A DNA stretch of 64,000 bases, from assembly GCF_016026235.1 (NCBI RefSeq), contig NZ_CP065613.1. One strand, given 5' to 3'. This DNA is from Escherichia coli. Lineage in GTDB: Bacteria > Pseudomonadota > Gammaproteobacteria > Enterobacterales > Enterobacteriaceae. The number at the start of each line of letters is the position of its first letter. The first letter of the stretch is position 1. Shown here in pieces: positions 13,786 through 42,720 of this stretch. Under the pieces are notes generated by a model. The model was given only the letters and a program-made list of their open reading frames with translations. It was not told the origin of the DNA and made no database searches. A program made the position numbers and the translations under genes.

Positions 13786-13905
13786 TATGCTCGTCATACT
13801 TCAAGTTGCATGTGCTGCATCTGCATTCGTTCACCCCAGTCACTTACTTATGTAAGCTCCTGGGGATTCACTCTCTTGTCGCCTTCCTGCAACTCGAATT
13901 ATTTA
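13786..13905. repeat. ERIC (IRU) element
   Basis: The core 13828-13871, read in reverse complement, is gtgaatccccaggagcttacataagtaagtgactggggtgaacg, which matches the ERIC core consensus with one mismatch. Outer boundaries are approximate. Confidence 0.6.
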
Positions 13906-13985
13906 GAGCACAGCTCACTTTGTTAACAACTTTAACTACTCTTTAATGCAGTATTAAAGATTAATCGGTAACAAAGTGAGCTGTT

Positions 13986-15110: not shown

Positions 15111-16355
15111 TTACTGATACACCGGCAGTAAATTAAAGCTCGATAAAATATGGACCAGTGCGTTGCCAACGCCAAACACCAGAATCAGCGTAATCATCGG
15201 CTTGCCGCCCCAGACGCGGAATTTCGGGCTGCCAAAGCGTTTACGCGATGCGCGGGCTAACAGCGCCGGAACAATTGCCGCCCAGATGGTAGCTGCTAAA
15301 CCAGCATAACCAATGGCGTACAGGAATCCGTTCGGGAACAGTAGACCACCCACAACAGGCGGGGCAAAGGTCAGCAATGCCGTTTTCAAGCGCCCCAGGG
15401 CTGAGTCATCGAAACCAAACAGATCTGCCAGATAGTCAAACAAACCCAGCGTTACGCCAAGGAACGAACTCGCTACCGCAAAGTTTGAGAACACGACCAG
15501 CAGAAGGTCCAGGCTACGGCTGTTCAGCACGCCGCTTAATGCCTGTACCAGCACATCAATATTACCGCCCTTCTCTGCAATACCGATAAACTCCGGACGC
15601 GGGATGTTACCCATCGTCGCCAGCAACCAGATGGTATACAGCGCCAGTGCCATCAGCGTACCGTACACCAGGCATTTCACGATGGTTTTCGGATCTTTGC
15701 CGTAATACTTCATCAGGCTTGGCACGTTACCGTGATAACCAAACGACGCCAGGCAGAACGGCAATGTCATCAGCAGATACGGCGCATAAGATGCATTGCT
15801 TTCTGCAACGTTGAACAATGTCGCAGGCTGCACATGCCCCAACAGGCTGCCAAAGGTGAGGAAGAAGGTAATGACTTTCGCCCCCAGCACAATCGCCGTC
15901 ATGCGGCTGACGGCCTTAGTACTCAACCACACCACAAACGCTACCAGCAGTGCAAAACCAAAACCCGCCGCCCGTGCCGGGACGTTTAGCGACATCTCTG
16001 CGAAGGTGTGATGCAGAATTGAACCACTGGCAGAAATATAGGCATAGGTCAGGATATAGAGCACAAAGGCAATGGAAATACCGTTGACCACGTTCCAGCC
16101 TTTGCCCAGCAAATCTTTGGTGATGGTGTCAAAACTCGAACCGATTCGGTAATTCAGGTTAGCTTCCAGAATCATCAAGCCGGAATGCAGCATACAGAAC
16201 CAGGTAAAGATCAGCGCCGCCATTGACCAGAAAAACCACGCCCCGGACATGACCACTGGCAGAGAAAACATCCCTGCGCCAATAATGGTGCCGCCGATAA
16301 TCACCACGCCGCCAAGCAGCGACGGTGACGTTTGGGTGGTGGTTAGTGTTGCCAT
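15111..16355 (-). CDS. mtr: Tryptophan-specific permease (HAAAP family)
   Basis: 414 aa polytopic transporter in the position of K-12 mtr. Confidence 0.9.
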
Positions 16356-21906: not shown

Positions 21907-21936
21907 TGAAAAAAGGGGCCACTCAGGCCCCCTTTT
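21907..21936 (-). terminator. rpsO rho-independent terminator
   Basis: Hairpin aaggggcc/ggcccctt with a T-run on the minus strand, just downstream of rpsO. Confidence 0.6.
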
Positions 21937-21952
21937 CTGAAACTCGCAAGAA

Positions 21953-30702: not shown

Positions 30703-31656
30703 ATGAATGGTAAATATTTTGTACGCCTCGCATTACATACTCTGAAATGCACTCAAAAAGATTTAGCAAGCCACTTAGGTGTTTCCTCAACACAAATTAG
30801 CAAGTGGAAAAAAGGGGAACACATGTCCGCTGATATGGAAAAAAAGTTCAGAAATATTACACAAATAGGAGATTATTCTCCTCAACTAGTTGAATGGACA
30901 GGCTCAGTCGCGAATGCTGAGAAATGGGATCGACTTATCCATTTTCTTGCTCGACGAGCTATGGACGATGCTGAAACGGGTTATATAACACAACTTCTTA
31001 CTGACGAAGATGGTTTTTTGGTTGAAGAAACAATTGATGTATTAAAGCGAATAGGTTTTCCTACACCTCTTTCCTTTCCTGAAGGACTTAATATTGACGA
31101 CGATAATGCTGATGAAGAAGAGGCTTTTTGGGAGATATTAGAGAGCAATGCTCATTGTTCTGTAATTAATGATATTTATCATGCTCTGAATGATGTTTAT
31201 GGTTTCTACATAGCATATGTTGATGAGTTGATTCAGGACGACGATTTAGATGTCTATTCAAGCGAAGCCATCAATATTCAGAGTTCATTGATATCACTTG
31301 CTGCATGCAAAATTGAAATTGATACTCCTGTTGCGTCAAACTTTAAAGAATTTCGTTATAGAGTTAAAAAAGACTACGAAAATTGGTTGAATCAACTCAA
31401 GATGATGGCATTCAGGGCGGGAATTCCGTTAAGAGCCGAACTTCTGGAAATGGTTTATAACACCGCTGACCAACTTAGCGTTGCAGCAGAAGCCGAACGT
31501 TTCGATTTCAATAAATCTCGCATTCATCCAGATATATACATGAACGAGATCCTTACTGGCATGAGAATAATTCACCAAGTGCTTCCGGTAATAATGCAAA
31601 AGTTAGAAATTACAGATTTCAAACTAGATGAAACAGATTTATGCCTGGGTAAATAG
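30703..31656 (+). CDS. Uncharacterised 317-aa protein with N-terminal XRE-type HTH and acidic C-terminal domain of unknown function (replaces yhbX of K-12 at this locus)
   Basis: Only long frame in a roughly 1.1-kb AT-rich block; RBS aagga lies 8 nt upstream of the ATG. Residues about 10-45 (LKCTQKDLASHLGVSSTQISKWKKGEH) fit the Cro/C1 HTH pattern. I recognise no motif in the remainder. Confidence 0.6.
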   Translation: MNGKYFVRLALHTLKCTQKDLASHLGVSSTQISKWKKGEHMSADMEKKFRNITQIGDYSPQLVEWTGSVANAEKWDRLIHFLARRAMDDAETGYITQLLTDEDGFLVEETIDVLKRIGFPTPLSFPEGLNIDDDNADEEEAFWEILESNAHCSVINDIYHALNDVYGFYIAYVDELIQDDDLDVYSSEAINIQSSLISLAACKIEIDTPVASNFKEFRYRVKKDYENWLNQLKMMAFRAGIPLRAELLEMVYNTADQLSVAAEAERFDFNKSRIHPDIYMNEILTGMRIIHQVLPVIMQKLEITDFKLDETDLCLGK

Positions 31657-32164: not shown

Positions 32165-32391
32165 AATCAACCTGTTCCTTGCGGAGTTGCCGCGTACCAA
32201 TGCTTCAACCAATAAAGCGGGAGTTTTTAATCTTTCCCACTGAAGCGGGTGTGAATACTAACCAAAGCGAATGACCTTCGCAAGGGCAATTTTATCGCAT
32301 TGTATCAACTGCGGAAAAAAACAGCAAAACCGATGTGTTCGCCGAGAAAAAAGGCGACAATCGCCGCCTTTTTAGCCAGTTATCTAACGCT

Positions 32392-38621: not shown

Positions 38622-40055
38622 ATGCGATTTTCCAGATTTATCATCGGATTGACCAGCTGTATAGCGTTTAGTGTTCAGGCCGCAAATGTTGATGAGTACA
38701 TTACTCAACTCCCCGCTGGTGCCAACCTTGCCCTGATGGTGCAAAAAGTCGGCGCGTCGGCCCCCGCTATTGATTACCACAGTCAGCAGATGGCGCTGCC
38801 CGCCAGTACGCAGAAAGTGATTACTGCGCTGGCGGCGTTGATTCAACTCGGCCCCGATTTTCGTTTCACCACGACGCTTGAAACCAAAGGCAATGTGGAA
38901 AACGGCGTACTTAAGGGTGACTTAGTGGCGCGATTTGGTGCCGATCCGACGTTAAAACGTCAGGATATTCGCAATATGGTCGCGACTTTGAAAAAATCTG
39001 GCGTCAACCAAATTGATGGCAATGTGTTAATAGATACCTCCATTTTCGCCAGCCACGATAAAGCCCCCGGCTGGCCATGGAATGACATGACACAATGCTT
39101 TAGCGCTCCGCCTGCCGCCGCCATAGTTGACCGCAACTGTTTCTCCGTCTCGCTCTACAGTGCCCCAAAACCTGGTGATATGGCTTTTATACGCGTGGCA
39201 TCTTATTACCCCGTTACGATGTTCAGCCAGGTACGCACCCTCCCCCGTGGTTCTGCCGAAGCGCAATACTGCGAACTGGATGTCGTACCAGGCGACCTGA
39301 ACCGCTTTACGCTAACGGGATGCCTGCCGCAACGTTCTGAGCCGCTCCCGTTGGCTTTTGCCGTGCAGGATGGAGCCAGCTATGCCGGGGCAATTCTGAA
39401 AGATGAGTTAAAACAGGCAGGTATCACCTGGAGCGGAACACTGCTGCGCCAGACTCAGGTTAACGAACCTGGAACGGTAGTTGCCAGTAAACAGTCGGCC
39501 CCGTTGCACGATCTGCTTAAGATTATGCTGAAAAAGTCGGACAACATGATCGCCGATACGGTTTTCCGCATGATAGGCCATGCGCGCTTCAATGTGCCTG
39601 GAACATGGCGGGCCGGGTCGGACGCCGTGCGTCAGATCCTGCGCCAGCAAGCCGGTGTCGATATTGGAAACACCATTATTGCCGATGGTTCAGGGCTTTC
39701 GCGGCATAACCTGATTGCCCCCGCCACCATGATGCAGGTGCTGCAATACATTGCCCAACACGACAATGAACTTAACTTTATCTCCATGCTGCCGCTGGCG
39801 GGCTATGACGGCTCTTTGCAGTACCGTGCAGGTCTGCATCAGGCGGGCGTGGATGGAAAAGTCTCAGCGAAAACCGGTTCGTTGCAGGGGGTATATAACC
39901 TGGCGGGATTCATTACCACAGCGAGCGGGCAACGAATGGCGTTTGTACAATATCTTTCTGGCTATGCAGTAGAACCGGCGGATCAGCGTAATCGCCGTAT
40001 TCCGTTAGTGCGTTTTGAAAGCCGTTTGTATAAAGATATTTATCAGAACAATTAG
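38622..40055 (+). CDS. dacB: D-alanyl-D-alanine carboxypeptidase/endopeptidase PBP4
   Basis: 477 aa with signal peptide and the SxxK active-site motif (STQK). Confidence 0.95.
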   Translation: MRFSRFIIGLTSCIAFSVQAANVDEYITQLPAGANLALMVQKVGASAPAIDYHSQQMALPASTQKVITALAALIQLGPDFRFTTTLETKGNVENGVLKGDLVARFGADPTLKRQDIRNMVATLKKSGVNQIDGNVLIDTSIFASHDKAPGWPWNDMTQCFSAPPAAAIVDRNCFSVSLYSAPKPGDMAFIRVASYYPVTMFSQVRTLPRGSAEAQYCELDVVPGDLNRFTLTGCLPQRSEPLPLAFAVQDGASYAGAILKDELKQAGITWSGTLLRQTQVNEPGTVVASKQSAPLHDLLKIMLKKSDNMIADTVFRMIGHARFNVPGTWRAGSDAVRQILRQQAGVDIGNTIIADGSGLSRHNLIAPATMMQVLQYIAQHDNELNFISMLPLAGYDGSLQYRAGLHQAGVDGKVSAKTGSLQGVYNLAGFITTASGQRMAFVQYLSGYAVEPADQRNRRIPLVRFESRLYKDIYQNN

Positions 40056-40069
40056 TCAAAAAGAAACCC

Positions 40070-40082
40070 CGGCACATGGCCG
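40070..40082. repeat. IS4 target-site duplication, left copy
   Basis: cggcacatggccg, identical to 41508-41520. Confidence 0.85.
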
Positions 40083-40100
40083 TAATGCCAGTCAGTTAAG
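40083..40100. repeat. IS4 terminal inverted repeat, left
   Basis: taatgccagtcagttaag, 16 of 18 matches to the reverse complement of 41490-41507. Confidence 0.85.
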
Positions 40101-41423
40101 CAACTGACTGGCTCTTTTTCGGGGCTGTGGGGTATTTCCAGGGCCTCTCCTTTACCACTCTCGGGAAGGCCCTTCCCCTTCTCGTCGGTAATTTCACAAG
40201 TTGTCCCATACTTGCAAGATCGCGCATCAGCTCCGGTATACGTCCCGGTGAAGCGCCCTGCAATGTCATCAGCATTCTCATCACCATTCCGCATGATTCT
40301 GAGAAACTCAGTTGATTCGGCCAGTAACCTTTCAGATGTTCCGCCATTTTAATCATCTGATATCTCACCAGATTATAAGCCAGTAAGACACCCCACAGCT
40401 CTTGCTCCACAAGCTCCGGCTTTTTACTTCTCAGCGTCAGCCTGCTCAGTTGCATCGTCTGTTTTATCTCCCTGTATCCCAGTTCGATTTCCCAGCGATG
40501 ACTGTACAGATCCGCCATTTCTCCTCCGGGGAAGCGCATGGCGTCCGTCATCGACGTCAGCAGATGGCAGACTTTTCCTTTGCGCGTCACGGTCAGCAGG
40601 CGGGCTGTCACTTCATTTCCCAGTCCCGGCCACTTTTTTCGTGCCTGCGGGCTGGTTTTCAGCTTCACCAGATGATCGCCTTTACCCAGTTTTCTGAGCT
40701 CTTCATATTGCGCTCCCTTTCTGAGAGGTATCATCCAGTGGCGGTGTTCTCCCGCCAGGCTCCAGGCATTTAACAGTCCCAGTGAGTAATAACCTTTATC
40801 CATTAACGTCAGAGTGTTATCGCCGGTTTGTTCTATAAGTTGCTCAGCAAGCTCATTTTCGCTGTTCTTCATCGTGCCGAAGGCTGCAGCCGTCAGCAGA
40901 TGGCTGGTCAGTTCCATCTGGCAGACCATTTTGACCTGCGGGTAGAGCGCCGGGTTCCCGGCATGTGTCTGGCGGGGAAGGCTGCATCGTTCTCTGGTGT
41001 ATCCGGTGTGCGCCAGAACACACCATCGATGGCCAGCAGGGTCAGGCCGCACCAGTGCGGATGCGGCGTGGCGTTATGCCAGAGCTGCGCTGTTTTCGTG
41101 AACACGCGGCGGACAGCCTCACTTCCCAGGCGCTGGCGGGCCTGAATAACGGCACTGGGGGCAACGAAGGGGCGATTGCCCGGCAGCATGATGTCCAGGC
41201 GATTCACAATCTGGTGAAGAGGTTCTTTACGCTCAAGCGCCATGCCAACAATACACCAGACCATCATTTCGAGGGGAAGACGGCGCTTGCGTAGCGTTAC
41301 AGTACCTGATTCGGCAAGGCAACGAGAGATGAGTTCGGGGTCGAGGTAATCCCCCAGAGAAGTCAGTGGGTTACGCAGAGAATCGTAACGGGATACCAGA
41401 TCAAGAGCCTGTCCAATGTGCAT
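40096..41423 (-). pseudogene. insG: IS4 transposase interrupted by a -1 frameshift
   Basis: Two overlapping minus-strand ORFs (40908-41441 and 40096-41052) together encode 150 + 292 = 442 aa of one continuous transposase. The frame changes at a G4 run, 40974-40977. Confidence 0.8.
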
Positions 41424-41489
41424 AAAAAAATCCGGAAACAAGTGAGCGTTTCCGGATTCTTACACAGCCACTGGATCGGTCAACTGATC

Positions 41490-41507
41490 CTTAACTGATC
41501 GGCATTA
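41490..41507. repeat. IS4 terminal inverted repeat, right
   Basis: cttaactgatcggcatta. Confidence 0.85.
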
Positions 41508-41520
41508 CGGCACATGGCCG
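41508..41520. repeat. IS4 target-site duplication, right copy
   Basis: cggcacatggccg. Confidence 0.85.
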
Positions 41521-41532
41521 GGGTTTTGCTGA

Positions 41533-42720
<1,188 letters not shown>

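Follow-up and report, generated by a model that had tools for sequence, protein, structure and literature searches.

A copy of the insertion sequence IS4 separates the convergent genes dacB and obgE in the E. coli DNA analysed here (a stretch of 64,000 nucleotides, hereafter called the window). It is very probably a lineage-specific copy of a known element which was sited by its target preference and whose end hairpins probably replace the terminator that it split. Judged from the sequence of the site, the insertion into the dacB–obgE hairpin is to be expected from the target preference of IS4 and is no coincidence.

An IS4 copy between dacB and obgE

The element at positions 40083–41507 was identified as IS4, of the IS4 subgroup in the IS4 family. 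It is 1425 bp long and carries its transposase gene on the minus strand. Comparison with annotated IS4 copies gave 99.9% identity, with a 1-nt gap as the sole difference from the best matches, and the IS4 of K-12 differs at 7 of 1426 positions (1419 identical). It is the only IS4 copy within the window. The element ends read TAATGCC...GGCATTA, and the terminal inverted repeats agree at 16 of 18 bases. An exact target-site duplication of 13 bp, CGGCACATGGCCG, flanks the element at 40070–40082 and 41508–41520. The dacB stop is 27 nt away from the element, and the obgE stop 25 nt; both coding sequences are intact beside it and have the same lengths as in MG1655. The identity of the element, its 18-bp imperfect repeats, the 13-bp duplication and the two distances had all been claimed in an earlier note on this DNA, and each was found in place. 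The length of 1425 bp given there is also correct, but it was overlooked that an intact IS4 measures 1426 bp and that the missing base splits the transposase gene. The features of the region are as follows.

38622–40055, plus strand: coding sequence of dacB, 477 aa, ending with TAG at 40053–40055 (open reading frame list; length and position as in MG1655 and other genomes)
40058–40069, no strand: outer half, on the left, of the former terminator and IS4 target, with A runs at 40058–40062 and 40064–40066, then the three C that open the left arm at 40067–40069 (fits the conserved AAA and C-rich arm)
40070–40082, no strand: target-site duplication, copy 1, CGGCACATGGCCG (exact 13-nt direct repeat; corresponds to the loop and inner part of the stem in the former hairpin)
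40083–41507, minus strand: IS4 element, 1425 bp (nucleotide identity to annotated IS4)
40083–40100, no strand: terminal inverted repeat on the transposase-stop side (16/18 match to the reverse complement of the other end)
40087–40119, plus strand: left-end inward-facing terminator-like signal, 11-bp stem, 4-nt loop and UCUUUUU (terminator scan; -18.7 kcal/mol; predicted function)
40096–41052, minus strand: downstream open frame, C-terminal two thirds of the transposase with the catalytic DDE part (open reading frame list; NF033592 match)
40974–40977, no strand: frameshift site, G4 where intact IS4 has G5 (alignment to intact copies)
40908–41423, minus strand: N-terminal part of the transposase, 171 aa, beginning with the ATG at 41423 and closing with an out-of-frame tail (translation; NF033592 match)
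41424–41461, minus strand: right-end inward-facing hairpin with seven U, immediately ahead of the start codon ATG of the transposase (inverted repeat; -21.1 kcal/mol; predicted function)
41456–41483, minus strand: promoter-like site for the transposase, TTGACC, 16 nt, TG-AAGAAT (sole sigma-70-like match in 39900–41700)
41490–41507, no strand: terminal inverted repeat on the transposase-start side (match to the other end)
41508–41520, no strand: target-site duplication, copy 2, CGGCACATGGCCG (exact direct repeat)
41521–41527, no strand: outer half, on the right, of the former terminator and target: GGG, with which the right stem arm ends, and TTTT (fits the conserved G-rich arm and TTT)
41533–42705, minus strand: obgE (cgtA) coding sequence, 390 aa (open reading frame list; matching genomes annotate it as Obg family GTPase CgtA)
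Occupied junction sequence of the window: CATGGCCGTAATGCCAGTCAG

The length of the duplication lies within the 11–13 bp (about one helical turn) that are characteristic of IS4, and 11–13 bp were also found at 18 other copies with duplications. A review of the IS4 family gives a duplication length of about 10 bp (PMC2266710).

The split hairpin and its empty site

Removal of the element together with one repeat gave the restored site AAAAAGAAACCCCGGCACATGGCCGGGGTTTTG. This site contains a hairpin with a 7-bp GC stem and a 5-nt loop, preceded by AAA/AAAAA and followed by TTTT, which lies 11 nt from the dacB stop and 9 nt from that of obgE. Folding yielded -20.4 kcal/mol on the sense strand of dacB (z -4.0) and -18.3 kcal/mol on that of obgE (z -3.4). 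By these sequence features the restored site is predicted to be a bidirectional intrinsic (Rho-independent) terminator between convergent genes. No Rfam family was detected within 40056–41532 in a scan of the whole window.

The reconstruction is well supported by other genomes. Over 600 nt, the reconstructed empty site is 100% identical to E. coli FDAARGOS_943, and a 76-nt version of it is uninterrupted in 3455 of the 5426 complete E. coli genomes. The earlier proposal that excision leaves a GC-rich hairpin with A and T runs on its two sides was thus confirmed. IS4 transposed into this hairpin, common to dacB and obgE, and thereby produced the 13-bp duplication. The hairpin was split into two remnants; each folds today as a 4-bp stem of -5.8 kcal/mol and lacks a U run, the left one being followed by UAAUGCC instead.

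Occurrence of the insertion in other genomes

The occupied junction of the window was found in none of the 5426 complete E. coli genomes. FDAARGOS_943, the closest of them (99.9% over 20 kb), has an empty site. Likewise, no IS4 was seen beside proteins identical to DacB and ObgE of the window among the places listed (tens of thousands of blocks matched). K-12 MG1655 has no IS4 at dacB/obgE, its annotated copy being located at 4502090–4503515, and its spacer differs from a simple bidirectional site by a REP pair of about 146 bp that follows the hairpin. The insertion is taken to be lineage-specific; a strain-specific one had been supposed. The alignment to other E. coli genomes that the note had called for revealed neither the element at this site in an MG1655-type reference nor a mismatch between the reconstructed empty site and related strains.

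The K-12 copy (insG, MG1655 4502090–4503515) resembles that of the window in its TAATGCC ends, its single transposase gene, its relative strand and the AAA...TTT flanks of its site, where it has a 12-bp duplication. In contrast, the copy of the window is 1 nt shorter (G4 instead of G5), its transposase is split, and it is located at dacB/obgE instead of yjgZ/nanX. The deletion aside, its allele is identical to that of copies on plasmids of about 290 kb and on the chromosomes of CFSAN029787, RMDEC364 and VL46. According to a published survey, Shigella and enteroinvasive E. coli have a distinct set of IS4 variants in common (PMC7373316).

In three genomes (STEC346, CE0026a and 19KM1766N), IS4 occupies the same 13 bp of the same dacB/obgE hairpin, also with a 13-bp duplication. 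Here the element lies in opposite orientation, and is intact (1426 bp) with an intact transposase; the hairpin has the loop variant CGGCATATGGCCG, and a REP pair follows the hairpin in the spacer, unlike in the window. DacB, Obg and the transposase have the same protein accessions in all three genomes, which therefore probably represent one event. That insertion is independent of the one in the window.

Target preference of IS4

A target consensus was derived from 12 IS4 sites with duplications, aligned at their centres and chosen among the best matches rather than by a systematic census of the IS4 copies, which occupy about 5,500 places in complete E. coli genomes. Among the aligned sites, A occupies positions -12 to -10 in 10–11 of 12 and T positions +10 to +12 in 10–12 of 12, while -9 to -3 is C-rich and +3 to +9 G-rich. 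The IS4 target is thus symmetric: a core of about 5 nt lies between a C-rich arm (about 7 nt), preceded by AAA, and a G-rich arm, followed by TTT, with staggered cuts 11–13 bp apart around the centre. The dacB/obgE site displays this arrangement with its conserved arms, AAA standing about 19–20 nt before TTT. When scored with a half-site matrix built from 10 other sites, it ranked 5th of about 188,000 positions, and 4th among distinct loci, in the window without the IS. Some IS4 sites fit one arm only (L005, L006, L025 and L028). A target rule AAA-N20-TTT was reportedly given for IS4 by Mayaux and colleagues in Gene in 1984. The published rule was not found in the literature searched, which yielded just an indirect statement (PMC2266710).

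The sites include the spacers rpoD/mug, aroA/ycaL, tdk/adhE and typA/yihL. In all four, IS4 sits at the centre of a GC-rich hairpin with A/T runs and is flanked by duplications of 12–13 bp; at typA/yihL it is found in both orientations in different genomes (L002, L012). A bidirectional terminator shares its pattern with the IS4 target, and such terminators are therefore natural landing sites for IS4. The claim that the element had entered exactly the terminator hairpin was correct as to location; its significance is lowered, since the target preference predicts it and the same 13 bp is occupied in three other genomes. IS elements that target REP sequences are described as preferring palindromic intergenic sequence, which limits damage to coding sequence (PMC1525189). 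IS4 is alike in this preference. The REP-targeting elements hit REP repeats, whereas IS4 uses a degenerate AAA/C-rich/G-rich/TTT pattern to which unique terminators conform, and it also enters coding sequence that happens to fit the pattern.

Hairpins at the ends of the element

Both ends of IS4 contain an inward-facing hairpin followed by a U run. At the left end, the hairpin at 40087–40112 with TCTTTTT (-18.7 kcal/mol) starts 4 nt inside the element and was flagged as terminator-like by the scan. The right-end hairpin, at 41461–41431 with seven U (-21.1 kcal/mol), starts 46 nt inside and was detected by a repeat finder and folding. It was missed by the terminator scan of the minus strand; our guess is that the scan extended the stem into the U run, which left too few T. 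The two hairpins are invariant in 10 other IS4 copies. With a hairpin, a U run and an orientation against incoming transcription, both are predicted to act as terminators. The transcripts of dacB would probably end near 40119, about 37 nt inside IS4, and those of obgE near 41424, about 84 nt inside and just before the transposase start codon. The right-end hairpin would in this way shield the transposase gene against transcription from outside.

A promoter scan of 39900–41700 gave a single sigma-70-like match, where 1.5 were expected by chance, and no outward-facing promoter. From this putative promoter of the transposase, RNA is predicted to start at about 41449. Such a start lies past the 5' arm of the right-end hairpin, so that the transposase mRNA would not form it; the RNA from 41449 folds at only -3.3 kcal/mol. 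Outward folding toward dacB, of the IS end with the target remnant, gave -10.9 kcal/mol (z -0.59), which indicates no significant structure. Toward obgE, a z of -3.0 was obtained with bases of the IS end paired to flanking bases, which was taken as fortuitous.

A reading in which IS4 recognises extruded hairpin or cruciform DNA rather than base sequence, and hits terminators for their structure, is improbable. It agrees with the strong hairpin potential of 6 of the 12 aligned sites (-12.7 to -21 kcal/mol), but five intragenic sites (in a kefC-like gene, yicI, a tape-measure gene, bcsG and ygeA) fold weakly, at -1.4 to -7.2 kcal/mol, and most of them retain the A/T flanks at the same spacing. 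This combination is what one would expect if a dimer of the transposase made symmetric sequence contacts with duplex DNA. A different question is whether the insertion matters for the neighbouring genes: dacB and obgE transcripts might read into IS4 and transposase transcripts run antisense to dacB, so that expression of the essential GTPase and of the penicillin-binding protein would be altered, now that the shared hairpin is split and 1.4 kb separate the convergent polymerases. The loss of a long stem and U run from both remnants and the unstructured path of the transposase transcript toward dacB speak for such an effect. So does single-molecule work according to which convergent gene pairs avoid read-through only if polymerases collide head-on at a stem-loop (bioRxiv 10.1101/2022.10.23.513370). 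The effect is nevertheless rather unlikely, since the inward hairpin-plus-U signals close to both ends equal the original terminator in energy, the coding sequences of both genes are undamaged, the three other isolates occupied at the same site are viable, and IS4 is also found in other terminators by essential genes, e.g. rpoD. In addition, an early stop in the frameshifted transposase mRNA would be expected to favour premature termination. From the sequence we infer a small effect on dacB and obgE. The earlier note had about 1.4 kb of IS DNA brought into the 3' regions of both genes; the terminator is indeed split, but this reach is probably overstated in view of the signals near the two ends.

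The split transposase gene

Alignment to intact copies and translation showed that one G was lost from a run of five, and that the transposase gene is frameshifted as a result. The two fragments match the NCBIfam model NF033592 (IS4 family transposase) at positions 3–131 (E 4.2e-30) and 133–332 (E 5.7e-56). The uninterrupted DDE transposase gene of IS4 (Nterm_IS4 and DDE_Tnp_1) is thus broken by the 1-nt deletion at 40974–40977, and the element is a degraded copy of IS4, not another element. Since the N-terminal piece of its transposase (171 aa) is separated from the catalytic piece, the copy is most likely immobile on its own.

It is unlikely that the missing G is a homopolymer error of sequencing or assembly in an element that is truly intact, active and 1426 bp long. 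Such an error would be favoured by the position of the deletion in a G5 run and by the otherwise complete identity to intact copies in CFSAN029787. Several carriers of the G4 variant also belong to the CP0268xx series, which we take to be long-read assemblies. Against it, 18 complete genomes of RefSeq carry the same G4 variant, at 37 places in all, with a frameshift annotated there. The 171-aa product is also on record in 200 blocks of a public assembly collection (the intact protein of the same allele in 341). The longest contig is below 2 kb in 76 of these 200 blocks, which were taken as collapsed short-read IS contigs. That the junction itself arose in assembly, through assignment of an IS copy to a locus where it does not belong, is very unlikely: repeated elements commonly cause misassembly, but the duplication is perfect, exact excision brings back the empty site, the site fits the IS4 target consensus, and the same position is independently occupied in other genomes.

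The G4 deletion was found on two allele backgrounds, and frameshifted copies occur at many different loci, each with its own 11–13 bp duplication (two of them in CP026810). Their product is recorded about 60% as often as the intact protein of this allele. There is a slight chance that the change from G5 to G4 has created a self-limiting, still mobile variant of IS4 rather than a dead copy. The G4 mRNA reads UUC CCC GCC. A -1 slip of the proline tRNA in the P site from CCC to the preceding CCC would place CGC in the A site and, on this reading of the sequence, give back exactly the wild-type transposase. If such slippage does occur, a transposase of the IS4 family would have newly come under frameshift-dependent control. 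Plainer explanations for the G4 copies are that intact copies mobilise them in trans, that gene conversion takes place between copies, or that homopolymer loss or sequencing error recurs.

Significance of the insertion

The insertion is a known element acting as expected; it leaves the current understanding of IS4, dacB and obgE unchanged. Being absent from the 5426 complete E. coli genomes, it is usable as a lineage marker. The presence of IS4 between convergent genes is an expected outcome, since its target pattern coincides with bidirectional terminators. If the end hairpins terminate transcription as predicted, IS4 replaces the terminator that it destroys, which would explain why it is tolerated beside essential genes such as obgE and rpoD.

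IS4 in the spacer between dacB and obgE

The convergent genes dacB and obgE are separated by a 1425-bp element, which is the single copy of IS4 in the window.

38622-40055, + strand: dacB, 477 aa
40070-40082: left copy of the direct repeat
40083-41507: IS4
41508-41520: right copy of the direct repeat
41533-42705, - strand: obgE, 390 aa

The element has the ends TAATGCC...GGCATTA, its inverted repeats match at 16 of 18 terminal bases, and the 13-bp direct repeats flanking it are exact (CGGCACATGGCCG). The distance from the dacB stop to the element is 27 nt, and from the element to the obgE stop 25 nt. Loci annotated as 'IS4-like element IS4 family transposase' matched the element in 2686 of the 5426 complete E. 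coli genomes searched. The best matches span 1426 bp with 99.9% identity, a single gap being the only difference from the window copy; the closest copies (CFSAN029787, RMDEC364, VL46) are located on chromosomes and on plasmids of about 290 kb. Seven differences in 1426 positions separate the window copy from the annotated IS4 of K-12 MG1655, which lies elsewhere (4502090-4503515), as the earlier note had stated, while the K-12 dacB/obgE spacer is free of IS4. In a population study, a distinct set of IS4 variants is common to Shigella and enteroinvasive E. coli, with the invasion plasmid as a possible vehicle (PMC7373316), so the window may come from a lineage of this kind.

With the element and one repeat taken out, the site reads TCAAAAAGAAACCCCGGCACATGGCCGGGGTTTTGCTGA, a hairpin with a GC stem of 7 bp, a loop of 5 nt and A and T runs on its flanks, folding at -20.4 kcal/mol in dacB sense and -18.3 kcal/mol in obgE sense. 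The description in the earlier note (an IS4 with its repeats and distances, and a hairpin at the empty site) was thus recovered in full, and its coordinates, ends, repeats and stop distances were all correct when rechecked in the sequence. A 600-nt reconstruction of the empty site was 100% identical to E. coli FDAARGOS_943, which at 99.9% over 20 kb is the nearest complete genome as well. Using a 76-nt probe built to break at any insertion, the empty site was found uninterrupted in 3455 of the 5426 genomes. In about 1900 genomes, K-12 included, the match stops at the hairpin. In the 185-bp spacer of MG1655 (L013 3398-3582, corresponding to window 40082/41521), CTTCAG and a REP pair of about 146 bp come after the dacB hairpin in place of the T run, as they do in the other genomes of this group; K-12 therefore lacks both IS4 and the simple bidirectional arrangement at this locus. 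Two dacB-obgE spacer alleles are thus common, the 'bidirectional terminator' form being one of them.

Recurrent insertion at the same hairpin

The insertion had been proposed to be strain-specific. This holds for the junction itself, as a 600-nt left-junction probe in window orientation was covered in none of the 5426 complete E. coli genomes, but the same position is occupied in opposite orientation in three annotated public genomes. A chimeric probe for that orientation was fully covered in STEC346, CE0026a and 19KM1766N, where an intact 1426-bp IS4 lies at the same 13 bp. These genomes have CGGCATATGGCCG as their duplication and the REP pair in the spacer, whereas the window duplication is CGGCACATGGCCG. 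The accessions of DacB, Obg and the transposase are common to all three, which therefore probably descend from one insertion event. The window insertion arose independently of it, and the dacB/obgE hairpin has thus been a target of IS4 at least twice.

Target preference of IS4

IS4 copies at other loci were drawn from the best matches and their empty sites reconstructed. Twelve sites with a duplication (eleven of these and the window) were aligned at their centre. A occurs at -12 to -10 in 10-11 of the 12 sites and T at +10 to +12 in 10-12; the stretch from -9 to -3 is rich in C and that from +3 to +9 in G, and duplications measure 11-13 bp. The K-12 IS4 site displays the same pattern. The aligned sites agree with the target rule AAA-N20-TTT, reportedly formulated by Mayaux and colleagues in 1984. 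They also agree with the striking specificity in target arms described for the IS4 family (PMC2266710).

Among the sites are the post-gene spacers rpoD/mug, aroA/ycaL, tdk/adhE and typA/yihL. At the last, too, IS4 has inserted recurrently: the typA terminator contains a 12-bp target, GCCAGCGATGGC, that carries IS4 in opposite orientations in stretches from two unrelated genomes (L002, L012). Recognition of an extruded hairpin was considered and is disfavoured, since five intragenic sites fold weakly (-1.4 to -7.2 kcal/mol) although most of them retain the A and T flanks, which argues for sequence recognition. Four further stretches (L011, L021, L022, L023) hold IS4 copies without a matching duplication on the two sides, suggesting that IS4 copies recombined later or that the adjacent DNA was rearranged.

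A half-site matrix was made from ten sites, the window excluded, and run along the window sequence after deletion of IS4. The dacB/obgE site ranked 5th of about 188,000 positions, as the fourth distinct locus, and the remaining top sites were likewise terminator-like hairpins. Three unoccupied hairpins outscored it and would be candidates for future IS4 insertion:

32347-32374
15960-15989
21909-21937

Given this preference, insertion exactly within the terminator hairpin is expected IS4 behaviour, and the interpretation in the earlier note is largely right with this qualification.

Frameshifted transposase gene

Intact IS4 reads GGCGGGGGAAGG where the window reads GGCGGGGAAGG, with a run of four G (G4) at 40974-40977 in place of five (G5). 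With one G fewer, the transposase gene is split.

From ATG at 41423: N-terminal product, 171 aa, with an out-of-frame tail at its end
40096-41052: second frame, with the remaining part of the protein

Each piece aligns to the NCBIfam model NF033592 (IS4 family transposase), the N-terminal one at profile positions 3-131 and the other at 133-332. Judged from its reading frames, the window copy alone should make no transposase. A -1 slip of proline tRNA on UUC CCC G would restore the wild-type frame, a speculative route of low probability.

Among complete E. coli genomes the G4 variant is widespread: 18 of them carry it, at 37 places in all, annotated as 'frameshifted'; B-2207 has the most copies in one genome (7). 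In the public assembly collection, 200 blocks contain the 171-aa product and 341 the intact protein encoded by that allele. Ten G4 places read from large assemblies are ten different loci, seven of them with their own 11-13 bp duplications, two of these seven within one genome. Mobilisation in trans and gene conversion are possible explanations for G4 copies at many loci, and so are recurrent homopolymer loss and sequencing error. Two further stretches (L007, L008) show the same deletion on the allele that is common in E. coli. It has therefore appeared, or been recorded, at least twice.

Other differences from K-12

Between argG and tRNA-Leu(GAG), where K-12 has yhbX, segment 30512-31688 encodes a 317-aa protein (ORF 30703-31656, + strand) whose N-terminal part matches a helix-turn-helix domain (Pfam HTH_19, E 5e-5). 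Only 236 of the 5426 complete E. coli genomes cover this segment, and PADLOC and NCBIfam searches gave no informative matches. Between ubiV and yhbW the window has an insertion of 119 bp that K-12 lacks (13793-13911); by eye it resembles an intergenic repeat of the ERIC/IRU type (core ...CCCCAGTCACTTACTTATGTAAGCTCCTGGGGATTCAC...).

Probable consequences for dacB and obgE transcription

The remnants of the split hairpin have a 4-bp stem each (-5.8 kcal/mol) and no U run; neither direction thus retains the original terminator. The ends of IS4 contain signals of their own:

40087-40112: inward signal of the left end, 4 nt inside IS4; 11-bp stem, 4-nt loop, then UCUUUUU
41461-41431: inward hairpin of the right end (-21.1 kcal/mol), then seven U, then the transposase ATG
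41483-41456, - strand: sole promoter-like site (TTGACC, 16 nt, TG-AAGAAT), predicted start near 41449

The left signal was flagged by a terminator scan (-18.7 kcal/mol), and neither inward signal varies among ten other copies. From these hairpin-plus-U signals we infer that transcription would stop inside IS4 for both genes, near 40119 for dacB and near 41424 for obgE. RNA from 41449 folds at only -3.3 kcal/mol; as the predicted start lies past the 5' arm of the right-end hairpin, this hairpin would act only on transcripts from outside. This arrangement resembles the protection from outside activation in other IS4-family elements (IS10, IS50). Terminator-like sequences upstream of transposase genes, some within the elements, have been described for several IS families (bioRxiv 10.1101/2025.07.22.666184).

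The predicted replacement termination inside IS4 may still not leave the insertion fully neutral for dacB and obgE. In convergent pairs, head-on polymerase collisions at the stem-loop contribute to termination in single-molecule work (bioRxiv 10.1101/2022.10.23.513370), and this geometry is abolished by the insertion, which counts against a fully neutral outcome.

The finding is an ordinary one, of a known element acting by a known mechanism at a site of the preferred IS4 type; the insertion is lineage-specific in its orientation, and the copy is degraded.
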